Origin: Shigella phage CWP003
Strand: one strand, 5' to 3'
Sequence record: OL856099
Length of the DNA stretch: 64,000 nt
In this document: positions 3,608 through 64,000 of the stretch, in pieces
How positions within the stretch are numbered: the stretch's first letter is position 1
How the letters are laid out: each line of letters opens with the position of its first letter
Translations under genes and position numbers: made by a program
Notes under the pieces: model-generated
The model's input: only the letters and a program-made list of their open reading frames with translations
Database searches by the model: none
Told to the model about the DNA's origin: nothing

Positions 3608-6016
3608 TTGATTCCCTTTCACTGTCAGGTGGCGTTAACAATGAAAATTCTTGGCATAAAACTCTGGGAGAAGACGCAACCAGAAGCCGAACCAGCGGAG
3701 ATGCCGCCAGGCGACCCATTGGCACCGTTTGAACGCCTTGAAAGGCGCGGCAGCGGTCAACGCTGGGAAAAGACTGAAAGCAATCGACCGACCTTTAAAA
3801 CGGTTGATGACTTCCCTTTATATGAGCCTGATATTAATGGCGATGGTGTTGCAATCATAAAAGGTCGTTCAGTCGATTCCGCAACAGTATCCAAAAAGGT
3901 TATGGATAATGCCTTAAAGAACATCAGTTCAGAAGGGCAAGTAAACCCATACACAGTACCTATTCAACTTCAAAACTGGTATTTGTCACAGTCATTCATC
4001 GGCTATCAAGCTTGTGCCATCATCGCACAGCATTGGCTGGTGAACAAGGCGTGTTCCATGGTAGGCCGCGATGCGGTCCGTAAAGGTTGGGAAGTAAAAT
4101 CCAGTTCTGAGTCAGAATTGTCAGTACAGGCAAGCGAACGCCTAAAGCAAATTGATAAAGAATTTAATATCAAAGAGCACTTAGTTGAAGCCGAACGATT
4201 CAAAAATATTTTTGGTATCCGCGTCATCATATTTGATGTGCGTAGCGATGACCCAGAATATTACAGCAAGCCTTTTAACATTGATGGCGTGACAAAGGGG
4301 TCTTATAAGGGAATCATTCAGGTTGACCCTTATTGGATGATGCCGTTTCTGACGTCTGAAAACACAGCAGACCCTGCATCACAGCACTTCTATGACCCAG
4401 AATATTGGGTAATCAGCGGACAACGTTATCATCGCAGCCACCTCATAATCTTGCGCAACGATGAGCCAGCTGATATTCTCAAGCCGACTTATATTTACGG
4501 CGGCATTCCTCTGACTCAGCAGATTTATGAACGCATCTATGCCGCTGAACGTACCGCCAACGAAGCGCCATTGCTGGCGATGTCCAAGCGTACAACGACG
4601 CTGCGGACCGACGTTGACAAGGCTATTGCCAATGAGCGGTCTTTTGCAGAACGTCTGATGATGTGGATCAAGTACCGCGACAACTATGCAGTCAAAGTGC
4701 TTGGCCAAAAAGAAGAGATGGACCAGTTTGACATCAACTTGTCAGACTTCGACAGCATCATCATGAACCAGTACCAGCTTGTGGCCGCAATCGCAAAAGT
4801 TCCGTCGACCAAACTGCTTGGGACTTCGCCAAAAGGCTTTAACGCCACTGGTGAATTCGAGATGGTCAGCTATCACGAAGAGTTGGAAACGTGCCAGCAG
4901 CATGACCTGACAAAAATTCTCGACCGCCATTACAAAATCCTTCTCAAATCAGAAGGGGTGAATGTCGATGTTAAGGTTGCATGGGAACCAGTTGGCTCAC
5001 TTACTGCTACTCAACTTGCAGAAATCAATGATAAGCGAGCCAACACTGGCAAAACTCTTATTGATGCTGGCGTCATTTCTCCTGATGAAGAGCGCGACCG
5101 CATCAAAGACGACAAAAACAGCGGCTACAACCGTCTGCCGGAAGACGCAGCAGAAGAAACCCCAGGGATGTCTCCAGAGAATATGGCATTGCTTGGCAAG
5201 TCTGCTGGTGAAGTCCTGCAAGGTAAGGCCGATATTGAACAGGCGAAAGCTGATGTCGTTAAGATGGGCGGCCAGTTCTATAGCGAAACAGGTATTATGC
5301 CAGAGGGTGCCGCGCGTGGTGAGTTGGCGGAAAACCCTGACAAAGCGCCTGTCGAAATCAACATGGACGATACCGATGATGAATCAAGCCATCAGGTTGA
5401 TGTCCTAACGCAGTTGAAAGAAGGGCTGGAGGGTATTGCGGATTACTACCTGAAAGAAGGTCAGGATGTGGATTTTGACCCTCAAAAAGATTCACGGTCG
5501 GTGCAACCGTCTACCCTTCCAAGCGTTAAAGGACACGTCGTCAACTTACGCCACAACGTGGGTAAAATGGACGCAGCATCATTACCTAAGATGAAGTTGC
5601 ACGGAATGATTCTTGGCATTGAGAATCCGCGAAACAGCATTCGTAGAGGAAACAGCCTTGACGGTGAATGGGCCGTGAAGATGCCGCACCACTACGGATT
5701 CATCAAGGGCACCAAGGGCGCAGACGGTGATGAAGTCGACTGTTTTGTGGGTCCAAATCTTAAGTCGCCGAAAGTCTTTATCGTGAACCAAAACGATAAC
5801 TACTCTGGCGAGTTTGATGAACACAAGTGTATGCTTGGATTCGATTCAGCAGAAGAAGCGAAAGAAGCTTATCAAGCATCATTTGGTAACGGTTGGAACG
5901 GATTCGACTCAATCCACGAATTAGATGTGAACTCATTCAAGGAGTGGTTGAAGGGTGATTGCTCTCAAGCATACGGAGCACTCAATAATCCTACTAATTC
6001 ACCGAAGCAAGGTTGA
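3608..6016 (+). CDS. Portal protein
   Basis: About 790-800 aa; position directly after terL and before a Mu F-like gene. Track start is TTG; a likelier start is ATG 3641 (MKILG) with AGGTGG upstream. Confidence 0.7.
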   Translation: MIPFHCQVALTMKILGIKLWEKTQPEAEPAEMPPGDPLAPFERLERRGSGQRWEKTESNRPTFKTVDDFPLYEPDINGDGVAIIKGRSVDSATVSKKVMDNALKNISSEGQVNPYTVPIQLQNWYLSQSFIGYQACAIIAQHWLVNKACSMVGRDAVRKGWEVKSSSESELSVQASERLKQIDKEFNIKEHLVEAERFKNIFGIRVIIFDVRSDDPEYYSKPFNIDGVTKGSYKGIIQVDPYWMMPFLTSENTADPASQHFYDPEYWVISGQRYHRSHLIILRNDEPADILKPTYIYGGIPLTQQIYERIYAAERTANEAPLLAMSKRTTTLRTDVDKAIANERSFAERLMMWIKYRDNYAVKVLGQKEEMDQFDINLSDFDSIIMNQYQLVAAIAKVPSTKLLGTSPKGFNATGEFEMVSYHEELETCQQHDLTKILDRHYKILLKSEGVNVDVKVAWEPVGSLTATQLAEINDKRANTGKTLIDAGVISPDEERDRIKDDKNSGYNRLPEDAAEETPGMSPENMALLGKSAGEVLQGKADIEQAKADVVKMGGQFYSETGIMPEGAARGELAENPDKAPVEINMDDTDDESSHQVDVLTQLKEGLEGIADYYLKEGQDVDFDPQKDSRSVQPSTLPSVKGHVVNLRHNVGKMDAASLPKMKLHGMILGIENPRNSIRRGNSLDGEWAVKMPHHYGFIKGTKGADGDEVDCFVGPNLKSPKVFIVNQNDNYSGEFDEHKCMLGFDSAEEAKEAYQASFGNGWNGFDSIHELDVNSFKEWLKGDCSQAYGALNNPTNSPKQG

Positions 6017-6017
6017 T

Positions 6018-6869
6018 ATGGCTTTTAAAGCTTCGAAAAAACGTGAACGCCGCGCACCCGATAGAGTCGGGCGCGGCAGTCCGATAATCCCATCAAACGC
6101 TATTGCGATGGCCTACCGTCGTGAGATGAAAGGTCTTTGCTATGCGATGATTGATGACTATCAGGCAGGAATTTCAGAGTGGCTTGAAAAGAAGCAGGTG
6201 CAGAAGTTCTTTGCGCAAGACTCTGCTGATTCAACATTCCAAACTCTTATGAAACGTCTGCAGCTGAAATGGGCAAAGGCGTTTGCTCGTGTTGGGTCGA
6301 AGATTGCCGCTGATTTTATCAAGTCGGTTGAAAAGGGGGCTACTTCTGCTACATTCGCCAGCCTTAAGTCCGCAGGCATAGAAGCGCCAAAGGCCACATA
6401 TAACAAATTCGTTGAGAACACTCTTAGAACAAGCGAGACGTTTAACACGACTCTAGTGACTAAGGTCGGCGAGGATATTCACAACAGAGTGTACGAAGCA
6501 GTCATGCTTTCGCTGACTTCGCCCGACCCAGCCCAGCAAGGCACGTCAGGCATTCAGGCGGCGCTGCGAAACGTAAAACACTTCTCTGCAAAGAGAGTCG
6601 ACTTAATCGCTAAAGACCAGACAAGCAAATTGTATTGCGTTCTAAGCGATGAAAGGATGCGCCAGAATGGAGTTGAAGAATTTGAATGGGCGCACTCAGG
6701 AGCAGGAAAGGAGCCGCGAATCTCTCATGAACATGTCGACGGAATGAGATTCAAACTTGATGACAAGCGTCTATGGGAAGTGGGCGGAGAGTTGAAGTTC
6801 AAAAAGGGTGACATCGGTCCTCCTGGATGGGCGATACACTGCAAGTGCAGAAAAATACCAATCATTTGA
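6018..6869 (+). CDS. Head morphogenesis protein (Mu gpF / SPP1 gp7 family)
   Basis: Start taken at ATG 6018 just after the portal stop; C-terminal region (...GPPGWAIHCKCRKIPII) resembles the conserved F-like C-terminus; portal-adjacent position. Confidence 0.7.
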   Translation: MAFKASKKRERRAPDRVGRGSPIIPSNAIAMAYRREMKGLCYAMIDDYQAGISEWLEKKQVQKFFAQDSADSTFQTLMKRLQLKWAKAFARVGSKIAADFIKSVEKGATSATFASLKSAGIEAPKATYNKFVENTLRTSETFNTTLVTKVGEDIHNRVYEAVMLSLTSPDPAQQGTSGIQAALRNVKHFSAKRVDLIAKDQTSKLYCVLSDERMRQNGVEEFEWAHSGAGKEPRISHEHVDGMRFKLDDKRLWEVGGELKFKKGDIGPPGWAIHCKCRKIPII

Positions 6870-8361: not shown

Positions 8362-9780
8362 ATGCGAATGCAAACGGCACGCGAAATTGACAAAAATGGA
8401 TTCTTGACGATTGTGGGTTGTCCCATTTCGTCATTTGGCATTTTTGATTATTCTGCAGGTCAGGTTGGACTTGATGGTGATCCGAATCGCATCGTAAAAG
8501 TTTATCGCCCAGAGTCAGCGGTGAAAGACCCCGAAGCGATAGATTCATTCAAAAATATCCCTTTCATCGACAATCACGAAATGCTTTCTGGATTCGAAGG
8601 TGATGAGGATAACACAGCACCCGAAGAGTATGGCGTTGATGGCGTTCTAACTGGCAATGTTTATTATGACAAGCCATGGATGCGCGGCGACCTTAAAGTT
8701 TTTAGCCGTCGTCTGAAGAAAGCCATCGATTCTGGAAAGGTTGACTTGTCTTTGGGCTATGACTGTGAATTCATCATACAGTCTGGAGAGTTTGACGGGC
8801 AGCCGTATGAAGTGGTACAGACAACTCTTCGCGGCAACCACATTGCTCTCGTGGACGTTGGTCGAGTACCAGGTGCACGGGTGCTGGATGGTCGTTGCTT
8901 TGACCATCTTTGTTTGACGACTGTAACACCATCCAACGAGGATTTAGACATGCCAAAACCGTTAAAAGGTAAAGCGCGTGATAATGCTGTTGAACAGCTG
9001 AAATCACTGATCCCTGCGCTCGAACAATTTCTGAATGAAGAGAGCACCGAAGCTGCTCATCAGGACGAAGTTGAAGTGAAAGCAGAAGAGAAGGATTCAA
9101 CCGAAGAACGTGAAGAAGTGATGGTTGATCCAGAAGTTAAAGCAGAAGCTGAAGAGACTCCAGAAGGTGAAGAGAAGTTTGAAGTTGAATCTGAATCTCA
9201 CGCTGGCGGCGAGCTTCCGCAACTGATCAGCCAAATCGAAGCACTTATTGCAAAACTGAAAGGTGGCGCGGTAGGTGATGAAGAAGAAGTTGAAGCCGAA
9301 GTCAAAGACGAAGAAGTTGAAGTCAAGGCTGAAGATGTATCACCTTGCGACAAAGCTGAAGATGTGGTTAGCGGCCTGCAAAACAGCAACGTAAAGGGGG
9401 CTTCGGTCGAAAAAGATGACAAACCGACAAAAGCGGCGAAAGCGTCGCCAGGTCCAGCAAAAGGGGAACACTCAATGGCATCTGATTCAGCAGTTGCTGC
9501 TTTCTACGCTGATTCTGCTCGTAAGAATAGCCTCTACCAGCGCCTGTCTAAAGTTGTTGGTGCCTTTGATCATGCAACTATGGACTCCAAGTCCGTAGCG
9601 AAATATGGCGCTAAAAAGTTAGGCTTGAAGTGCGTTGATGGTGCTGAGTTTGACGTGGTGGATAATTATCTGCGCGGCGTTGAACACGGTCAAAAACAGC
9701 GTGTAGTCGCAAAACAAAAGGCCGCTGCGGATTCTGCAGCAACTGACGAAGCATTTGAAGCTTGGTTGAAAGGGGAATAA
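8362..9780 (+). CDS. Head scaffolding protein, possibly fused to an N-terminal protease-like domain
   Basis: 472 aa; globular N-terminal domain of about 200 aa followed by a highly acidic Glu/Lys/Ala-rich helical region; position between the F-like gene and the capsid gene. Confidence 0.55.
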   Translation: MRMQTAREIDKNGFLTIVGCPISSFGIFDYSAGQVGLDGDPNRIVKVYRPESAVKDPEAIDSFKNIPFIDNHEMLSGFEGDEDNTAPEEYGVDGVLTGNVYYDKPWMRGDLKVFSRRLKKAIDSGKVDLSLGYDCEFIIQSGEFDGQPYEVVQTTLRGNHIALVDVGRVPGARVLDGRCFDHLCLTTVTPSNEDLDMPKPLKGKARDNAVEQLKSLIPALEQFLNEESTEAAHQDEVEVKAEEKDSTEEREEVMVDPEVKAEAEETPEGEEKFEVESESHAGGELPQLISQIEALIAKLKGGAVGDEEEVEAEVKDEEVEVKAEDVSPCDKAEDVVSGLQNSNVKGASVEKDDKPTKAAKASPGPAKGEHSMASDSAVAAFYADSARKNSLYQRLSKVVGAFDHATMDSKSVAKYGAKKLGLKCVDGAEFDVVDNYLRGVEHGQKQRVVAKQKAAADSAATDEAFEAWLKGE

Positions 9781-9782
9781 AT

Positions 9783-10400
9783 ATGACTTTCCAAACTAGT
9801 GTAGGCCGTCAATATACAACTGGCTTTCCTGGCGACATCGTTCGCGACGGCCCACAGCGTGGGAAGCCAGGTCGAATCGTTAGCGCCAACGACGGTGCAA
9901 ACGTAAACGCCATCAGCCGTGTGTTTGGTTTTAAAGCTGACGTATCTTTAATGGGTACTGGCCAAACCAAAACTTTGGGCGCGCAGGACTTTGAAGTTGA
10001 GCTGGGCGGCACCAACTACTACGGCATCCTCGGCAATAGCAAGCGTTATGCGCTGTATGGCAACTCTACTGGTCCTTTGGGCGCCAGCATGGTTCTGCCT
10101 CAATATAGCGAAGGCGAGTTCTACGATATGTGCACGGGCCTCGTAGTTGAAGTATTCAACCCTGGCACCAGTCCGCAGACGCTGAACTACGGCGACCTGC
10201 TCGCTTATGTACCTAAAGGCATCTCAAGCGTGAACAACCCGAACAACTTGCCTATCGGTGCAATTATCGCCTATACTGGCTCACTGCCAACTGGCATGGT
10301 TGCCATTCCAGGCGGTATCGTGATTGACCCGACTGCTATTGCCCTTTCCGGCCCAAGCGTCCAGTCTTCCACTTATACCATTGTACAATTGACTCGTTAA
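9783..10400 (+). CDS. Capsid accessory or decoration protein (putative)
   Basis: Start ATG 9783 (MTFQT) right after the scaffold stop; placement between scaffold and capsid. Confidence 0.4.
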   Translation: MTFQTSVGRQYTTGFPGDIVRDGPQRGKPGRIVSANDGANVNAISRVFGFKADVSLMGTGQTKTLGAQDFEVELGGTNYYGILGNSKRYALYGNSTGPLGASMVLPQYSEGEFYDMCTGLVVEVFNPGTSPQTLNYGDLLAYVPKGISSVNNPNNLPIGAIIAYTGSLPTGMVAIPGGIVIDPTAIALSGPSVQSSTYTIVQLTR

Positions 10401-10414
10401 TAGGCAGGTGAATA

Positions 10415-11554
10415 ATGACTCGCATTAGCCAAACACACTCTCGCCTCCCAGCGAGCAAGGTGCGCCCTTTTGATATGCAATCCGTTACCGACGCGGCTGT
10501 TTCCCAGCTTGCTCGTATCGGTATTGTGTTTGATTCCGCGATTGTGCGTGATCAGATTGAGCACTTAAACCGTGCAGGCGCTTTCCGCGTAGGTGACGCC
10601 GCGTTTACCGCGCCGCAGACCACGCCATCAATCCCGACCCCGCTGCAGTTCCTGCAACAGTGGCTGCCTGGCTTCGTCAAAATCATGACCGCTGCCCGTA
10701 AAATTGACGAGCTGGTTGGTATTGACACCGTTGGTCAGTGGGAAGATGCAGAAATCGTTCAGGGCATCGTTGAACCAGCTGGCACCGCAGTTGAATATGG
10801 TGATTTCACCTCTATTCCTCTGGCAAGTTGGAACGTGAACTTTGAACGTCGTTCCATCGTTCGCGGTGAAATGGGCATGGCAGTCGGCATGCTGGAAGAA
10901 GGCCGCGCGTCTGCGATGCGTCTGAACTCCGCAGAGACCAAGCGCCAGCAGGCTGCTGTATCTCTGGAAATCATGCGTAACGCAATCGGCTTCTATGGTT
11001 GGTACAACGGGAACAACCGCACGTTCGGCTTCCTGAATGATCCAAACCTGCCAGCGGCGATGACTTCAAACACCACTTCCGGCTGGGCTACTGCGACCTT
11101 CCAACAGGTGACTGCAGACATCCGTTTGATGGTCCGTCAAATTCGTGTAAACTCTCAGGATCAGATTGATCCAGAGAAGGTTGACATGACTCTGGCGTTG
11201 CCGACCAACTCTATTGATTGGCTGTCAAACACCACCGACTTCGGTATTTCTGTACGTGACTGGATCACCCAGACTTATCCGAAGATGAAGATCAAATCTG
11301 CACCGGAACTCAACGGCGCACTTGGCAGTGACCCGACTTTCCTGAACGTGGCATATCTGTATGCTGATCACATCGATTCCTCGATTGATGGCTCAAGCGA
11401 TGATGGTTCCGTATTCAGTCAGCTGGTCCAGACTAAGTTCATGACTCTGGGCGTTGAGAAACGTGCTAAGAGCTACGTTGAAGACTACGCAAACGCAACA
11501 GCAGGCGTTCTGCTCAAGCGTCCTTTCGCAGTCGTCCGTATGACTGGTATCTAA
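10415..11554 (+). CDS. Major capsid protein (putative)
   Basis: 379 aa; AGGTGA RBS; follows scaffold and accessory genes; stem-loop GGGGCG...CGCCCC follows the stop (11580-11610). Confidence 0.55.
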
Positions 11555-57317: not shown

Positions 57318-57537
57318 AGCCCGTTTATTATTCATCAAGCCGCATGTGCCGTATAAGATTAGCAAACGCACCTGGCTTAATATTTACAACCGCAGCGGCG
57401 ACCGTTGCTTGTACAAGGCGAAGCGACGCAAGAAGGTATATTTAAAAGCGGTGATGTCGAAGCCCGTCGATGCATTCACCATCGGCGAAAATGAATTGTC
57501 AATCGGCTATCAAATTGAACTCGGAGTAAAGAAATGA
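57301..57537 (+). CDS. Hypothetical small basic protein
   Basis: Track ORF. Confidence 0.35.
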   Translation: MASNLKARLLFIKPHVPYKISKRTWLNIYNRSGDRCLYKAKRRKKVYLKAVMSKPVDAFTIGENELSIGYQIELGVKK

Positions 57538-58043
57538 AAATCGAACAACTCGAAGCAGTATTGGAAATGGCCGTAAAGGCAGGCGCAATCAAAAGCTATC
57601 GTCGCGAGAAGTCAGATAGCGACAGGGTGTTTTGTCGCAACTTCTATATCGTCGGCAACCTTAACGACCACTACGCCATCGAGTGGTATATTAACATAAT
57701 GACCCTTAAGTCGCGCACAATGGAGCTTTGGTGCGATGACATCTGTCTTTCGAATACTCACCCAAGCTATGATGTCGCCCTGGCATTCTATCACGGAAGC
57801 CGTCAACCTGTCGCCCACATCGGTGAGAAGCATGAGCATCTTAAGGCGCAACCAGAGGAATCAATGGAAGGCTGGATTGAATGGGCTGGCGGCGAGAATC
57901 CGGTGCCTGGTAAGAAGGTCAAGTATAAGTTGCGCGACGGCGATGAATCAAGAAAGCCTGTTCTTTCAGATGATTTGAGATGGGAGATGGTTGACGATTC
58001 TTATGCAGCTGACATCATCGCTTATCGCGTCGTGGAGGAATGA
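57534..58043 (+). CDS. Early protein with conserved C-terminal W-x2-W-GGENPVPG...DIIAYRVV module
   Basis: Shares a C-terminal module of about 55 aa with 58927..59502. Confidence 0.5.
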   Translation: MKIEQLEAVLEMAVKAGAIKSYRREKSDSDRVFCRNFYIVGNLNDHYAIEWYINIMTLKSRTMELWCDDICLSNTHPSYDVALAFYHGSRQPVAHIGEKHEHLKAQPEESMEGWIEWAGGENPVPGKKVKYKLRDGDESRKPVLSDDLRWEMVDDSYAADIIAYRVVEE

Positions 58044-58713: not shown

Positions 58714-58943
58714 CCGATAAACAATACGCAGTCGGGCAGCGTGACATCGAGCAACTCGACGAGGGCGGCTATTATACGCGCCACATCTATGCCATGACGC
58801 ATGAAGGACTTTACAGCAAGTCTGACATCGCTGCTGAACTGGCCCATCGTGACTTGCAAATTGACATGTTGCGTCTTGCTCTTGAGAAGCAAACACAAAT
58901 CGCCATCGAAATTTTGGAGAAGTTAAATGATACAACGTTATGA
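58710..58943 (+). CDS. Hypothetical small protein
   Basis: Track ORF. Confidence 0.4.
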   Translation: MTDKQYAVGQRDIEQLDEGGYYTRHIYAMTHEGLYSKSDIAAELAHRDLQIDMLRLALEKQTQIAIEILEKLNDTTL

Positions 58944-59502
58944 TGTTGATTATTGCACGCAGCACGCTTGCACATGCGAAGTTGTAAAGGATGATGAAGG
59001 CGGCTATGTTGAATATGAGGACTATGCCGCGTTGGAAGCGAAATACAGTGAAGTAAAAAGTCGCGTCGAGCTGGAAGCGAAACATAGTGAAGTTAAAACG
59101 TATGCAGTAAACTGCAACGACGCGTGGCTTAATACAAAGGGTGATGACACCTCTGGTTCATATGTCAAGTTTTCTGATTATGCCGCGCTGGAAGCGAAAT
59201 ATAGTGAAGCGCAACGCGAGTTGGTTGCATTACGCTCACAGGTCCGTGATGCATCGGCGCTCGTTAAGCAGTTGCACGATGTTGTTGCTACTATAGTCGT
59301 GGATGTTGATGCGCCGAAGGAAGAAGCGTGGACCGTGTGGCACGGTGGAGAGAATCCGGTGCCTGGGGAAATGGTTGAATACAAGCTGCGCAATGGAGAA
59401 GATAAAGTGCTGTCAAGACTCTCTGACCATCTTCACTGGGGTCATATAGGCGCGTTAAAGGGCAGCGACATCATCGCTTATCGGGTCGTTAAGGAGGGGT
59501 GA
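58927..59502 (+). CDS. Early protein with internal DYAALEAKYSE repeats and the shared C-terminal module
   Basis: Three copies of (E/S)DYAALEAKYSE-like repeats; C-terminus WTVWHGGENPVPGEMVEYKLRNGED...DIIAYRVVKEG. Confidence 0.5.
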   Translation: MIQRYDVDYCTQHACTCEVVKDDEGGYVEYEDYAALEAKYSEVKSRVELEAKHSEVKTYAVNCNDAWLNTKGDDTSGSYVKFSDYAALEAKYSEAQRELVALRSQVRDASALVKQLHDVVATIVVDVDAPKEEAWTVWHGGENPVPGEMVEYKLRNGEDKVLSRLSDHLHWGHIGALKGSDIIAYRVVKEG

Positions 59503-60035
59503 TGGGTAACAATGCAGGATGGGGCAAGCCGCGATACTCCAAACTTGCCCACTACTTTGACAATGGCGAACAAATCAGCTTGTGCGGCAAATTCAATAAG
59601 GGCAATACGGAGTTGACCGACTCTCAAGAAATGGAGTCAAGTTTAACAATTGGTGATTGCGCGAAGTGTCGCAAGGCATTATATGAATTATTAACTCTAA
59701 AGGGATTGAAAGTTGCAAAATCAAGGGATGAATGGGTCATGAACGTCTGTGAAGGGAATACAGAATTAATGGATGAATGGCTAAAGACGGATGCGGTCAA
59801 TGCCATATTCAAAAGGAATTATAAGACCTGTATGCGTTACAAGATGAAAGATGATATTATTTTTATGGTATTATCTTATTCAAGGAACACAACGGACGTC
59901 AAAAAGCTTCGACAATATCGCCACAAGGTCATGTGTGAATTGCGCCGTTTAGGAGTGATTGTTGATAATAATGTCATTAAAACGGAGTTGGAGAAGCGGG
60001 ATAAAAGGAATGGTGACTGGAAGGTCAGCGGATAA
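59499..60035 (+). CDS. Hypothetical protein with N-terminal Cys pairs (possible zinc ribbon)
   Basis: Track ORF; ...LCGKF...DCAKCRKA. Confidence 0.4.
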   Translation: MMGNNAGWGKPRYSKLAHYFDNGEQISLCGKFNKGNTELTDSQEMESSLTIGDCAKCRKALYELLTLKGLKVAKSRDEWVMNVCEGNTELMDEWLKTDAVNAIFKRNYKTCMRYKMKDDIIFMVLSYSRNTTDVKKLRQYRHKVMCELRRLGVIVDNNVIKTELEKRDKRNGDWKVSG

Positions 60036-60300
60036 AGAACACTGTATTGCGTGTTTTGAATAATGGGATGTGTACAATTGGTCGCTTTACGCGGCCTTTT
60101 GTTGTTGTTTGGGTCGTGTTTCGTGATTGAATAATTATGAGGCGATGTTTTATTTATTAATTGTGCGGAAATATTTAGAAATATATATAGACAGGATTGT
60201 TAATATTTTAATAGTGTATGGCTATCGGTCCGTGGTGTTTGTTAGGAATTATCTATGGATTGAAATTTTAGTGTCGTGAAACGTGGTGTTTGAACATATT

Positions 60301-60660
60301 TGATACGCGTAAAATACGGCTAAAAATTAAGCGTATCATGGCTGCAGGCCGCGCCGTTCCTGGATTCCTCTTTTCCAAATTGGTACACCCTTACGTCATG
60401 ATACGTCATGGTTTTTTATCCGTATCAGTGTACAGCCCTTGCCGCGCCTGGCTTGTACATTAATCTTACGGATGATACGGATAAAACTGGGCATCGTTAT
60501 ATATATAATTTGAAAAATTAATTAACTCCATTTTGAATTAATTTAAATTAATTTTTTTCTACATCCTCATACTTATGTTAATTTATATATAACGTATTAT
60601 CCGTAAGATATAAGTAAAAACAAAGACTTGCGGCAATACGGATGATACGTCATGATACGC
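60301..60660. repeat. Iteron locus 2: GATACGGAT/ATCCGTATC and GATACGTCATG repeats around an AT-rich core; shares a 21-mer with locus 1
   Basis: Seen directly: ACGTCATGATACGTCATGG, TTTTATCCGTATCAG, AATCTTACGGATGATACGGAT (identical to 8029-8049), AT-rich 60490-60590, TTATCCGTAAGAT, CAATACGGATGATACGTCATGATACGC. Confidence 0.65.
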
Positions 60661-60806
60661 TTCAACCAGCCAGTAGCGGCTAAGTCATTGATTTGCATAA
60701 CAAGCGGCGAAAGGGATGGACTTCTTTTATACGTATCAAACAGTACACCACGCACCACGGTCCGATATTCATTCAGCACTATGATTTATGTACGTTTACA
60801 GCCAAT

Positions 60807-60835
60807 TTGAACATCAATCTGCACTTGAATATAAT
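60807..60835 (+). promoter_or_regulatory. Sigma70-like promoter (TTGAAC, 17 nt spacer, TATAAT)
   Basis: Read from sequence; followed by two tandem TTGCACTAT motifs overlapping the RBS and ATG of the downstream gene. Confidence 0.45.
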
Positions 60836-60887
60836 GTTCAATCATTATATAATTCACACTATTAATTTGCACTATGGGATTTGCACT

Positions 60888-61361
60888 ATGAGTCAAGATT
60901 ATGTAGCAATGCCTGAAGACTTTGAAGACCCGCGATTTGCAGAGCATAATCAGGCATTATTCGATGAGTTCATCGACCTTGTTATTCAGGGCCATGACAT
61001 GCGCGCAGCTTTTGCACTAGTATTTGGCATGGAGGTTGCGACCGATAACTACACTGGCCAGCGAATCCTGTGCACTCAGCGCAATCCGTACTACAAGATG
61101 CGCTACAAAAAGCGTATGGAAGAGATGCCATTGAAGGAATTGTGGAGCGTAAAGAGTTCCATTCACAATTTAGTGAAGCTTGTGCGTGATCCAGAAGTCG
61201 CAGCATCAGCCAAGCTTAATGCCATTCGTGAACTGAATATCATCTACGGCATTACGATGATTGATGAAAACGGCAATAGTAAAATGGGCCGTTCCATGGA
61301 TGATTTCTACAAGGATTTTGGAGAGGCGGCCAAAGAGGGTGAGCAATTCTCCCGCCACTAG
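60888..61361 (+). CDS. Small helical DNA-binding-like protein (possible regulator or small terminase-like protein)
   Basis: 157 aa from ATG 60888 in frame with track ORF 60693..61361; central stretch IDLVIQGHDMRAAFALVFGMEVATDNYTGQRIL reads as an HTH-like segment. Functional call speculative. Confidence 0.4.
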   Translation: MSQDYVAMPEDFEDPRFAEHNQALFDEFIDLVIQGHDMRAAFALVFGMEVATDNYTGQRILCTQRNPYYKMRYKKRMEEMPLKELWSVKSSIHNLVKLVRDPEVAASAKLNAIRELNIIYGITMIDENGNSKMGRSMDDFYKDFGEAAKEGEQFSRH

Positions 61362-61380
61362 CCAATTTGCACTATAAAAC

Positions 61381-61414
61381 GGCCCTAGAACACATTTTCT
61401 CCACTTCTAGGGCC
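61381..61414. other. Perfect 10-bp hairpin (GGCCCTAGAA...TTCTAGGGCC, 14-nt loop) just after a motif copy
   Basis: Seen in sequence; no U-run follows on the plus strand. Confidence 0.4.
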
Positions 61415-61475
61415 ATCGGTAATACGACGGGGAAGGCTGCAACCATAAACGCGTTAGAAAGTGTATTATTATAAG

Positions 61476-61739
61476 TCATCTTTTAGTCACTTTACGTAAC
61501 AATTTACGACCTTCCGCCGTCCAGTCGAACGACTCCACCAGCAAATTTGCACTATAACCTAAGACGATGCGCCCTTTCTCGTTATCTACCCGCCAACAAG
61601 TCTCAAATAGCATTCGATTTGCACTATTAACTATCGCCGCAACGCGCGTTGGGTAAGCGCAATTTGCACTATGGTCATAAAGGGATAAGGTGCGACCACT
61701 TCCGATGGACAACGTAGCGATGAGAATAAGCGTATTCAT
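61476..61739 (-). CDS. Possible small ORF overlapping three motif copies (each read as Ser-Ala-Asn)
   Basis: Track ORF; GGTGG RBS before the ATG; coding status uncertain because the repeated motif dominates. Confidence 0.3.
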   Translation of the reverse strand: MNTLILIATLSIGSGRTLSLYDHSANCAYPTRVAAIVNSANRMLFETCWRVDNEKGRIVLGYSANLLVESFDWTAEGRKLLRKVTKR

Positions 61740-61789
61740 AAGCCACCAATTTGCACTATGAAAAGCGACCCCGAAGGGCCGCCATTCGA

Positions 61790-62416
61790 TTAGATAATCT
61801 GGAAGGTGTAGGACTTGTTGCCGAACTCGAAGTTCAAGCGTCCCGCTTCTTTAAGCTTCATGCGGAAGCGAATGTGCTTGCTATCCGGTAAGCCCAGCGC
61901 GGCGAACGCTACGCGGACTGATTTGAACTCGCCTACACCCTCGACCATAACGGCGTTACGGGTGAGACGCTTTTGCGCCACTTCCTTGTTATCCCAACTT
62001 TTTGCAATACCTTCGCTATTCGAACGGCGATGGGAAGGAGTTCCATTTTGCACTACGCAACTTGCACTATCGTTTAGGCCGCTTTTAACGAAGGCTTCAT
62101 ACTCTTCGTCGGTCATCGCGTCGAGTTCTTCCTGGGTCGGCTCGGCCTTTTTGACGACCGCACGCGCCTTATGCGTTTTTACATCGCTGGACACTTCCTC
62201 GCGCGGCTTCGCGTCTGGGATGGGCGATTCGTTGGACGGCTCATCGAGCGCGTTTAAGGACTCGATTAACGCGATTACGCGAGTCTCGGCGGTCCGGCGG
62301 TCCGCAAACTTCTTAATCGGTTTTGAGCCGGAATTTGCATTATAGAATGCAACGAGGTCGGCGGTCTTAGTTGCGATAACGTCGCCGCTAGTAGAAAAGC
62401 GATTTAAGCTAACCAT
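61790..62416 (-). CDS. Hypothetical protein (basic/acidic mixed), CpG-rich codon usage
   Basis: 208 aa track ORF; TAGGAG RBS 7 nt before the ATG; contains motif copies at 62048, 62062 and 62335. Confidence 0.5.
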   Translation of the reverse strand: MVSLNRFSTSGDVIATKTADLVAFYNANSGSKPIKKFADRRTAETRVIALIESLNALDEPSNESPIPDAKPREEVSSDVKTHKARAVVKKAEPTQEELDAMTDEEYEAFVKSGLNDSASCVVQNGTPSHRRSNSEGIAKSWDNKEVAQKRLTRNAVMVEGVGEFKSVRVAFAALGLPDSKHIRFRMKLKEAGRLNFEFGNKSYTFQII

Positions 62417-62496
62417 AATAAACTCCTATTTGTTAGGGCGCTAGGCGCGAAAGAATTTTATTAAAGCGCCGCGCACGACGCTCTAAAAATCCTCTC

Positions 62497-62811
62497 TTAC
62501 TCTTCGTCGTCTTCGATTAATTCGAGGGCGAAGGCGTAAGCTTTGCTATCGTAATTAACTAAAACGGCGAGTTCGAACTCGTTAATAAACGCCGTTTTAC
62601 CGCATAAATTTAATTCCGCATCGACTTCGAAGAATCCGTTTTCGTCGCGCTCTAAGCGAGAAGCAGCGAGTTGCTCGATTACCGTCGCGTCGTTAATTTC
62701 TTCGCCTAAGCGAACGCCGGAGAATTTCGCGAGAATTTCGCCGTAAGTAAGCGTAACGCCCTGGACTTCGGCGGTTGCGTTTTCGAGGGTAAAGCGGGTA
62801 ACGATAGCCAT
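62497..62811 (-). CDS. Small acidic protein
   Basis: 104 aa; TAGGAG RBS; acidic C-terminus (ELIEDDEE). Confidence 0.5.
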   Translation of the reverse strand: MAIVTRFTLENATAEVQGVTLTYGEILAKFSGVRLGEEINDATVIEQLAASRLERDENGFFEVDAELNLCGKTAFINEFELAVLVNYDSKAYAFALELIEDDEE

Positions 62812-62951
62812 AACAAACTCCTAGTTGGGAGAGGCGTTAACGACCTATTCGTTAACTCATCCCGTCCCGATATGAGTACATTATAATATAGTGTAGAAAA
62901 AAGTAAAGCACTTTTTCGATAAAAATGCGATAAATTATTTTATCTTTTTTC

Positions 62952-62979
62952 TTTACTTCTTCGTACACTCGCGTATACT
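62952..62979 (+). promoter_or_regulatory. Promoter A (TTTACT, 16 nt spacer, TATACT) followed by conserved box GTTTATATCGAGACGGG
   Basis: Read from sequence; paralogous to promoter B. Confidence 0.45.
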
Positions 62980-63035
62980 TGTTTATATCGAGACGGGCGA
63001 TGGCCCTTTCTTCTACTAGCATCGGGAGCTTTATT

Positions 63036-63338
63036 ATGACTACTTTAATCTCTTCCATCCTTACTTACGACGAAGACCGCTTAACCGTTCGCTCTCTTAT
63101 CGCCGCCGTTAACGCGGAACTCGAAACTAGCATTATTAAAGCGCGCGCCGTCGCCTTCGTCGGCCTTTCCTTCGACGATATTAAGTATGCAGAGTATAGC
63201 GCCATTCGCGTCGTTACTACCGACGATAACGCCGTTACCCTTATCGAGACGGTTACGCCTCGCGGCGAAGCGTTAATTATCGTCGAGTATATCGACGTAG
63301 AAGGCGATAAAGCTTATAAATATTTTATCGCAGAATAA
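63036..63338 (+). CDS. Small hypothetical protein
   Basis: 100 aa from ATG 63036 in frame with track ORF 62979..63338; CpG-rich codons. Confidence 0.45.
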   Translation: MTTLISSILTYDEDRLTVRSLIAAVNAELETSIIKARAVAFVGLSFDDIKYAEYSAIRVVTTDDNAVTLIETVTPRGEALIIVEYIDVEGDKAYKYFIAE

Positions 63339-63350
63339 CGAAAAAAGTGC

Positions 63351-63379
63351 TTTACTTCTTCGTACACTAAGACTATAAT
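63351..63379 (+). promoter_or_regulatory. Promoter B (TTTACT, 17 nt spacer, TATAAT) followed by conserved box GTTTTATATCGAGAGGGG and a 5'-UTR hairpin
   Basis: Read from sequence; hairpin GGTAGCGA-ATAGG-TCGCTACC at 63412-63432. Confidence 0.45.
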
Positions 63380-63446
63380 GTTTTATATCGAGAGGGGATG
63401 AGGTAGCGAATAGGTCGCTACCCTCCCGACTAACTAGGAGAATATT

Positions 63447-63737
63447 ATGATTACTTTAGCCGCTATCCGTTCCGCTCGCGTCGAAACTTCCGAAAACTCT
63501 AACGTATTTGGCGAAAAACTTAAAAACGTTTATCTCTTTAACGTAGATGCGACTATCGAAGAGCTTCATAGTCCTATCGATTTTAGCGAATTTACGGAAC
63601 TCGAAGAGGAAGATATTACTACCTTCCGCGTTACTATCGAAGGTAAGGTTTATTTTGCTACGGAGTTCGGCGGCGAATATCTCGCGGTATCCGAAGGCGA
63701 AGGCCGTTACTCTTTCTTTAAAATCGTCTCCTTATAA
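63447..63737 (+). CDS. Small acidic hypothetical protein
   Basis: 96 aa track ORF with AGGAGAA RBS. Confidence 0.45.
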   Translation: MITLAAIRSARVETSENSNVFGEKLKNVYLFNVDATIEELHSPIDFSEFTELEEEDITTFRVTIEGKVYFATEFGGEYLAVSEGEGRYSFFKIVSL

Positions 63738-63901
63738 TACCCTTCCGTTACTAATAGGCCGCGCTTAGTCGCGGCTTTTCTTCGTCCCTATCTCGATGCG
63801 CTTCTCCGCGAAAACTCCTTTATCCTTCCCTTCTTCGTCGCATAATCTTCGTCGAGATGCGCCTTAGTTCGCATAACAGGTATTACGTTAAATGGAGAAC
63901 A

Positions 63902-63975
63902 TCGCGTAAGTCCTTGTTTTATATAGACACCTATATCGGACCGTTAGGGAGGGTCGCGTAAGTCGTTGTTTTATA
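63902..63975. repeat. Two direct 22-bp repeats TCGCGTAAGTC(C/G)TTGTTTTATA
   Basis: Seen directly at 63902-63923 and 63954-63975; contain the same GTTTTATA core as the boxes downstream of promoters A and B. Confidence 0.5.
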
Positions 63976-64000
63976 AAGGCGCAAAACTTTCCCTTCGTTC

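Follow-up and report, generated by a model that had tools for sequence, protein, structure and literature searches.

Co-oriented repeats around the small terminase gene of a Wifcevirus phage as a candidate packaging recognition array

Recognition of viral DNA by the small terminase subunit (TerS) has long been a weak point in phage biology. To our knowledge, a specific DNA target has not been demonstrated for most small terminases, including the structurally solved TerS of phage E217, and both DNA recognition in phages with long direct terminal repeats (DTRs) and the signals that define such repeats are essentially unknown. In this study, a 64,000-nt stretch of Shigella phage CWP003 (sequence record OL856099; hereafter the window, meaning the whole stretch analysed) was investigated, in which copies of an 11-mer, ATTTGCACTAT, run in a single orientation in and around the gene of a 157-amino-acid protein, the small terminase gene (terS), close to the left physical end of the genome.

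In phage lambda, gpNu1 uses the cosB sites R3-R2-R1, which lie between cosN and the Nu1 gene within about 120 bp and define the packaging direction. The candidate sites described here resemble cosB in being repeated elements on the gene-proximal side of the cut that reach the start of the small terminase gene. Lambda has three sites of mixed orientation, an IHF site and cohesive ends, whereas the window contains about 12 co-oriented candidate sites over 1.5 kb in an array that crosses terS and continues past it, and the phage has long DTRs. Multiple short repeated boxes are also found as the pacL and pacR boxes of SPP1 and the hexamers of P1. The pac sites of SPP1/SF6, P22 and P1 are similar to the present locus in that the recognition sequence lies in or next to terS and has no second occurrence in the genome (PMC9611059). 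Headful packaging in these phages starts from a single compact site of 20-260 bp, whereas the array in the window is much more dispersed, strictly direct and combined with a precise terminal repeat; unlike both cosB and pac, it also reaches past terS into opposed genes. Like such recognition sites, the array in the window consists of short repeats near the predicted cut, in or next to terS, with no copies elsewhere in the window, and the same was found in the complete genome of Pantoea phage Kyle.

The sole characterised member of the protein family is the E217 small terminase (7UXE), which shares with the window protein an N-terminal helix-turn-helix (HTH), a helical oligomerisation core and a beta-hairpin. 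As in the window, the E217 terS gene lies apart from terL and next to the packaging start. In a review's account of this protein (PMC9611059), it is a decamer whose gene is far from terL, its overexpression lowers the phage yield, and no appreciable DNA binding in vitro is reported. E217 and the other Pbunavirus-like lineages examined lack the ATTTGCACTAT array, unlike the window; they carry a Glu at the end of helix 3, where the window TerS has Gln-Arg, and keep an Arg in helix 1. The genome ends differ as well, given that the Pbunavirus JG024 is reported as probably headful and permuted (PMC10913387) and Wifcevirus phages have an exact 3.7-kb DTR (PMC6753283, PMC6563267).

The small terminase gene and the left genome end

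The locus was 93-98% identical to those of the Wifcevirus phages WFC, WFH, Mansfield, ECML-117 and Bas98-101, all of which are E. coli myophages. By this identity, the window is assigned to Wifcevirus and represents an E. coli myophage related to PB1; the genus is distantly related to the PB1-like Pbunavirus phages of Pseudomonas (bioRxiv 10.1101/2024.09.12.612763). The central gene is as follows:

60888-61361, + strand: terS, small terminase subunit of the E217/PB1-like family, 157 amino acids, ATG start

The terS product matched the E217 small terminase (7uxe_A) over residues 3-147 with E=9e-33 and 39% identity over 145 residues (phmmer), and was 100% identical to Mansfield gp002 (CPT_002), which is annotated as 'terminase small subunit'. 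Comparison with PHROGs gave phrog_4783, a family with unnamed function (E=1.8e-75), and a weak TerS match; against Pfam, no family was found at E<=1 and no repressor family was present. An AlphaFold2 (AF2) model built from a seven-row alignment had a mean predicted local distance difference test (pLDDT) score of 72.7, with values of 83-90 over residues 11-80. Helices at residues 22-33, 38-46 and 56-65 make up the HTH region of the model and are followed by a helix at 67-79, two long helices at 88-100 and 106-119, and a beta-hairpin with strands at 123-125 and 131-133. In a Foldseek search with this model, 7uxe_A was the best and sole significant match (E=7.9e-6), followed by weak matches to the PaP3 and NV1 small terminases. 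Judged by homology and predicted fold, the 157-amino-acid protein is the small terminase of this phage. An earlier sequence-only reading had treated it as an autoregulated, repressor-type DNA-binding protein with a small-terminase-like role as an alternative. The repressor label has no basis in Pfam, and the only strong homologue is the E217 terminase; the alternative, backed by the E217 homology and the Mansfield annotation, is the better reading, and the HTH fold that had been anticipated is predicted at the N-terminus. The same reading had held a distance of about 59 kb to terL against a terminase role. In the window, terL occupies 1362-2822 (Terminase_3, E=3e-37); in the physical genome of Mansfield, terS lies at 361-834 and terL at 9484-10911, that is, 8.6 kb apart. 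By this comparison the 59-kb gap is an artefact of the permuted assembly of the window, and the objection lapses. The gene order is shared with E217 and consists of a primase module, terS and then an opposed early-gene block that includes a homologue of gene gp004. In relatives, primase genes lie directly upstream of the terminus.

The deposited genomes of Mansfield and WFC preserve the physical ends and have exact DTRs of about 3.7 kb (PMC6753283, PMC6563267). In four independently determined genomes (Mansfield, WFC, Kyle and Serratia phage MTx), the terS ATG lies 356-377 nt from the left DTR boundary. The Mansfield and WFC records start 360 nt ahead of the terS ATG, the Kyle record opens 356 nt before it and has an exact DTR of 3603 bp, and 376 nt separate the record start from the ATG in MTx. 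From the 356-360 nt that precede the terS ATG in the Mansfield, WFC and Kyle records, the left physical end of the genome in the window can be placed at about 60528-60530, inside an AT-rich core. The elements at this predicted terminus are as follows:

60495-60594, no strand: AT-rich, internally palindromic core with the left DTR boundary at its centre
60495-60505 and 60584-60594: inverted repeats CGTTATATATA/TATATATAACG, bounding the AT-rich core
60301-60740, both orientations: about 10 TGATACG(G/C)-type repeats flanking the terminus, distinct from the ATTTGCACTAT array

The TGATACG(G/C) repeats could be cleavage-site or origin elements. Other lineage-specific repeats occupy the matching position in Kyle (AATATCCGA and GGTTATT) and in Salmonella phage PCSE1 (AATATCGCC). 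In the Pbunavirus JG024, long reads preferentially begin at position 59,376, which its authors proposed as the pac site (PMC10913387); this position is about 600 bp upstream of the JG024 terS homologue. Since both the DTR ends and the JG024 read starts are located a short way upstream of terS, packaging in the whole superfamily appears to begin there.

Other features of the terminal repeat were observed. A conserved AGTACACTAATCA element lies 30-45 nt past the right DTR boundary in Wifcevirus and Kylevirus and may be a right-boundary signal. Its Wifcevirus form, AAATTTGCAGTACACT, occurs twice and resembles the ATTTGCACTAT motif. The element is located at 3697-3716 and 3794-3810 in Mansfield and at 3635-3647 in Kyle; MTx has GGACACTAAAT at a similar offset (about 3611-3625), and its left end begins with TAGTGTGCGTACACTAAC. 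A 7-bp tandem repeat, CGACCCA, is present in six copies at 3843-3884 of Mansfield, about 170 bp past the right repeat boundary. Many metagenomic contigs that carry terS and gp004 have a length of about 3.4-4.4 kb, close to that of a DTR (L016, 3983 bp; the P0006 contig, 3755 bp; several of 3.3-4.4 kb), which would be expected if assemblers split the double-coverage repeat off as a contig of its own.

The repeat array and its conservation

Seven exact copies of ATTTGCACTAT were found in the window, whereas 0.04 were expected, and none of 100 shuffles reached seven. The 9-mer TTGCACTAT occurred in eight exact copies, all on the + strand within 60867-62070, with none in the other 62 kb. With up to two mismatches allowed, 12 copies of ATTTGCACTAT were detected between 60852 and 62343, all 12 on the + strand, with successive spacings of 13, 14, 131, 355, 180, 72, 45, 87, 297, 14 and 273 bp. 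Measured rightward from the terminus, they are at 324-1815 bp, and the array starts about 260-320 bp from the AT-rich core; most copies are intragenic. The copies are distributed as follows:

60852-60889, + strand: operator-like tandem triple with 13-14 bp spacing, formed by ATTCACACTAT at 60852 and ATTTGCACTAT at 60865 and 60879
61010-61020, + strand: near-copy TTTTGCACTAG within the terS coding sequence, at the AFALV codons of HTH helix 2
61365-61375, + strand: exact copy 3 nt past the terS stop codon, invariant in eight Wifcevirus genomes
61545-61759, + strand: four exact copies (61545, 61617, 61662 and 61749), three inside the minus-strand gene gp003 and one intergenic
62046-62343, + strand: three distal degenerate copies (62046, 62060 and 62333) inside the minus-strand gene gp004

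The copies thus occupy a 5' untranslated region (UTR), a + strand open reading frame (ORF), intergenic DNA and two minus-strand ORFs in different reading frames. Because they are found in non-coding DNA, on both coding strands and in different frames, the repeats represent a DNA-level signal and not the by-product of a repeated peptide. Among the eight Wifcevirus genomes, 3 of 99 motif positions varied in the nine proximal copies (60852-61759), compared with 107 of 912 flanking positions (Fisher p=0.003), and by this measure the proximal copies are under purifying selection. The near-copy TTTTGCACTAG was invariant in all eight genomes and recurs at the same offset (+123) in the metagenomic lineage L014, where the copies at 61545-61759 have counterparts at +731, +776 and +865. 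The distal copies in gp004 are gone in three of the eight genomes, which carry a divergent gp004 allele, and are a dispensable fringe of the array.

Two overlapping promoters precede terS:

60807-60835, + strand: sigma70-like promoter TTGAAC-17-TATAAT, 10 of 12 matches
60825-60853, + strand: sigma70-like promoter TTGAAT-17-TATAAT, overlapping the first, 10 of 12 matches, -10 element at 60848-60853

Strong sigma70-like promoters are also present upstream of terS in L014, L015, Kyle and Pantoea phage PA1. In the promoter scan, sigma70-like promoters were found only upstream of terS. A role of the motif as a general phage promoter was rejected, with no exact copy in the rest of the genome, and no consistent partner hexamer at the spacing needed for a sigma70, extended -10, sigma54 or MotA-box-type promoter was found at each copy. 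The tandem triple spans the interval from the second -10 element, which is overlapped by the degenerate ATTCACACTAT (60852-60862), to the ATG. Within it, TTGCACTAT occupies 60867-60875 and 60881-60889; the ATG (60888-60890) shares two bases with the end of the second copy, and between the two copies lies GGGA (60876-60879), the sole Shine-Dalgarno-like sequence. The sequence-only reading had described a promoter, a tandem motif at the ribosome-binding site (RBS) and ATG, a gene for a DNA-binding protein and a downstream array, and the coordinates and motif counts agree with this description. In one detail it went too far: the motifs do overlap the ATG, but the RBS is bracketed by the 9-mers and overlaps the extended 11-mer by 1 nt only. 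The triple was invariant in the eight Wifcevirus genomes except for a 1-nt indel or an A/T change. L014, whose TerS is 68% identical, has the same triple, again ending on the ATG, and part of it occurs in L016; in Kyle, PA1 and L015 no copy separates the promoter from the ATG. The arrangement is confined to lineages close to Wifcevirus. Folding of the terS 5'UTR was no better than that of shuffles (z=+0.8), and an Rfam scan of 60000-64000 gave no structured RNA match.

Co-oriented, terS-linked arrays of 4-12 copies were found in nine lineages, the window included, with TerS proteins 40-70% identical. The other eight are as follows:

Pantoea phage PA1: 12 copies
Pantoea phage Kyle: 10 copies
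L014 (metagenomic): 11 copies
L015 (metagenomic): 9 copies
L016 (metagenomic): 4 copies
L167 (metagenomic): 10 copies
L168 (metagenomic): 8 copies
L169 (metagenomic): 12 copies

All copies are on the terS strand, between about -115 and +1450 as counted from the terS ATG, in surrounding DNA that is unalignable. The complete Kyle genome has no array copy in its 66-kb unique part. Across 56 copies from these lineages, only R-A-TTTGCACTA-Y, about 12 bp, is conserved, and positionally homologous copies between lineages occur at +123, +443, +730, +775 and +862. Thirteen lineages of the same family lack the motif (MTx, PCSE1, E217, tabernarius, FoX7, Gekk3-15, L149, L150, L155, L171, L172, L173 and L174). 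No convincing counterpart array was found in E217, tabernarius, FoX7, BcepF1, Gekk3-15, PCSE1, L149, L150 or L155. In MTx, three direct repeats of about 25 bp, AAAAAATAAGCATGCTTTGTATAGG, lie directly downstream of terS at 951-1093 and contain no ATTTGCACTAT motif; they may be a lineage-specific counterpart of the array. In a scan of IMG/VR for tandem motif pairs, the array together with TerS was found only in Wifcevirus contigs, and the remaining hits were mostly chance or in-frame coding repeats.

The motif-bearing TerS proteins form one clade in a neighbour-joining tree and share two changes in the HTH. The basic residue of x[RK][IV]xG in helix 1 is replaced by an aliphatic one, and at the end of helix 3 the acidic E/D before N-P is changed to Q, K or R, followed by R (Q64-R65 in the window TerS). 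The acidic helix 3 residue is kept in 13 of 13 motif-less lineages. Array presence and the two-position HTH signature are therefore perfectly associated (9 versus 13 lineages), although the nine form one clade and count as a single evolutionary event. L171 is instructive in this respect: its TerS is 49% identical to that of the window, closer than Kyle's, yet it has E at the end of helix 3 and no motif copies. The pattern is as expected if the TerS of this clade gained specificity for the motif; as one event, it is not proof.

The motif sequence gave only unrelated primer matches in the literature, and no description of the array was found in the Wifcevirus, Mansfield or BASEL papers. The terS protein was already known, and the array appears to be undescribed.

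Candidate roles of the array

We favour the reading of the array as a pac- or cosB-like set of TerS recognition sites whose promoter-proximal triple also serves as an autoregulatory operator, and we give it about an even chance of being correct. Host RNA polymerase would transcribe terS from the sigma70-type promoters, which lie in the 3.7-kb DTR about 300 bp from its left end. The co-oriented ATTTGCACTAT copies, from the promoter through terS to about 0.9-1.4 kb beyond it, would be read by the HTH domains of TerS, which we infer to be the binder of the sites. TerS rings loaded on the array would mark the phage DNA in the concatemer, and the bound TerS would position TerL for a cut at the AT-rich palindrome about 330 bp leftward, the single orientation of the sites setting rightward packaging. 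Through the triple, which is placed from the -10 element to the ATG, TerS would also be able to repress its own transcription and keep its amount as low as this family requires; autoregulation through these three copies is plausible as a secondary function. Direct rather than inverted repeats suit a cyclic oligomer such as a TerS ring, and a spacing of 13-14 bp suits adjacent HTHs of a ring with DNA wrapped round it. The reading gains strength from the position of terS, 360 bp from the physical end inside the DTR, from the retention of the array in different genera and from its co-variation with the TerS HTH. Tight control of the TerS level is plausible because overexpression of E217 TerS cuts phage yield, as the review's account of that protein has it (PMC9611059).

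Several observations weigh against this reading. The protein for which the review's account gives no appreciable binding in vitro, E217 TerS, is the only family member characterised; this negative result is qualified by the fact that E217 belongs to a motif-less lineage with an acidic HTH. The association of HTH and motif maps to a single tree branch and is phylogenetically one event. Beyond the triple, the spacing is irregular (45-355 bp over 1.5 kb), unlike that of compact pac or cosB sites, and a spread of 1.5 kb is hard to fit on one TerS ring. A comparable array is absent from the motif-less relatives, including ones whose DTR is just as long (MTx), so the array is not a general requirement of E217/PB1-like TerS. 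The TGATACG repeats flanking the terminus could be the true terminase site. Finally, Kyle, PA1 and L015 lack the promoter-proximal triple, and autoregulation is for this reason at most a lineage-specific addition and not the conserved function; as far as these lineages indicate, the conserved part is the array from the terS 3' end onward.

A stronger form of the packaging reading, which we consider rather unlikely as a whole, takes the array to be the first readable code by which the small terminase of a long-DTR myophage recognises DNA; it would have been acquired by a clade-specific gain of sequence-specific TerS binding. The gain would have come about through the E-to-Q/K/R change and the loss of the HTH Arg, together with about 12 co-oriented sites. 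The array and the AGTACACTAATCA/AAATTTGCAGTACACT elements beyond the right boundary would jointly define both ends of the repeat, and the interleaving of the sites with Chi would manage the exposed end.

It is possible, though unlikely, that another sequence-specific protein, either from the host or encoded by the phage outside this region, binds the array for transcriptional control and that TerS is merely regulated. Such a protein would shut the strong terS promoter and roadblock the convergent early transcripts gp005-gp004-gp003 heading to terS and the genome end. The classical operator position of three copies fits this explanation, and so does the coverage by the array of a convergent-transcription zone containing a terminator hairpin:

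61381-61413, between convergent terS and gp003: hairpin with a 10-bp stem, folding free energy (dG) -18.9 kcal/mol, z -3.8

This hairpin is annotated as a terminator in WFC and is probably bidirectional. The E217 TerS, without DNA binding in vitro in the review's account (PMC9611059), points in the same direction. The two conserved neighbours, gp003 and gp004, are however unfit as readers of the motif. By inspection, the motif does not match the E. coli DnaA box, IHF site, marbox or NtrC half-site, and a conserved enterobacterial factor sits poorly with the related Salmonella and Serratia phages, which lack the motif. Control of transcription by such a protein would leave the exact coincidence with the TerS HTH signature unexplained, and Kylevirus keeps the downstream array but not the promoter-proximal copies.

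We regard as quite improbable the explanation that the copies are polar signals for a machine translocating from the left end, either a Chi-like modulator of an exonuclease or helicase or a signal for ejection or entry. The copies are similar to Chi clusters in being short, asymmetric, orientation-biased to a DNA end and position-tolerant, and in relatives they are interleaved with real Chi sites. One E. coli Chi site is present in the window:

61535-61542, - strand: single Chi site GCTGGTGG, abutting a motif copy

Its orientation is the active one for RecBCD entering at the left genome end. In relatives, Chi sites cluster within ~2 kb of the left end and are without exception on the minus strand (nine in Kyle, seven in PA1, seven in L015 and four in MTx). 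The strict single orientation relative to a nearby physical end, the irregular, position-tolerant spacing with a dispensable fringe, as in density-selected motifs, and the interleaving with true Chi clusters oriented for RecBCD from the same end all agree with a polar signal. However, neither ATTTGCACTAT nor its complement is related to GCTGGTGG or a known Chi variant, and we know of no second Chi-reading enzyme in E. coli and of none that reads the motif. The motif count also does not offset the Chi count across lineages, specific copies are positionally conserved, and the layout of the tandem triple over promoter and ATG resembles that of protein-binding sites.

Still less probable is a role of the array as replication-origin iterons bound by a primase-helicase or initiator encoded just upstream of the terminus. 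Direct repeats near an AT-rich, palindrome-rich region and, in relatives, the immediately upstream primase genes would suit an origin, and some origins are intragenic, such as the lambda ori in gene O. Each copy is short (about 12 bp), and the copies are irregularly placed over 1.5 kb and mostly intragenic, unlike phased iteron arrays; the TGATACG repeats beside the AT-rich core are better origin candidates. Chance or a coding artefact is excluded: although the three gp003 copies share one frame (x-S-A-N) and the multi-copy TGCACTA runs in unrelated IMG/VR contigs are all in-frame coding repeats, the window copies span non-coding DNA, both coding strands and different frames, with 0.04 exact copies expected, and the array is kept in nine lineages.

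The locus offers a defined 12-bp candidate site and a natural comparison between nine array-bearing and thirteen array-less lineages, and the two-residue HTH signature predicts which TerS proteins should bind. The phages are culturable, Bas98-101 growing on engineered E. coli K-12, so the question is directly testable. Practical implications include the engineering and rebooting of therapeutic PB1 relatives and the prediction of transduction. If the recognition code proposed above were true, the apparent non-binding of E217 TerS would be a matter of its lineage, and an exchange of two residues together with a 12-bp motif could transfer packaging specificity. If TerS is not the binder, the array would still be a strongly selected, strictly polar signal at a phage genome end, interleaved with Chi.

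Neighbouring genes and other elements

The genes opposed to terS that contain motif copies are as follows:

61476-61739, - strand: gp003, 87 amino acids, clade-specific, with a signal-peptide-like N-terminus and two invariant cysteines
61790-62416, - strand: gp004, 208 amino acids, phrog_4730, found beside terS throughout the PB1-like superfamily, including E217 gp79

The gene gp003 is restricted to the motif-bearing clade. Its three motif copies are read in one frame as (H/N/Y)-S-A-N, the N-S-A tripeptide is invariant in all homologues, and a DNA-level constraint appears to shape the protein. As a reader of the motif, gp003 was rejected, given that its signal-peptide-like N-terminus makes it look secreted. 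The C-terminal ~70 residues of gp004 are very strongly conserved (EFKSVRAAFAALGLPDSKHIRFRMKLK), and the domain LPDSKHIRFRMKLK is near-identical in lineages with and without the motif. Because this C-terminal domain is near-invariant across both sets of lineages, gp004 cannot explain a clade-specific site and was likewise rejected as the reader. No homologue of gp004 was found in the PDB, a protein-database search returned near-identical sequences only, and one homologue had a sub-threshold NUMOD-like match (E=0.039). The protein may have an accessory role in DNA binding or packaging.

The Chi clusters of relatives extend over 262-1979 in Kyle, 4861-6433 in PA1 (record L004), 330-1831 in L015 and 179-1276 in MTx. 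The nine Chi sites near the left end of Kyle compare with about two expected for its whole genome, and a Chi site lies inside the terS promoter spacer in both Kyle and L015.

Upstream of the terminus, two + strand ORFs at 57534-58043 and 58927-59502 end in a common C-terminal module of about 50 residues (W.GGENPVPG..V.YKLR.G…DIIAYRVV); they are paralogues that share a domain of unknown function. The portal protein (3608-6016, + strand; Phage_portal_3) has an inorganic-pyrophosphatase domain at its C-terminus (PF18823, E=3e-46).

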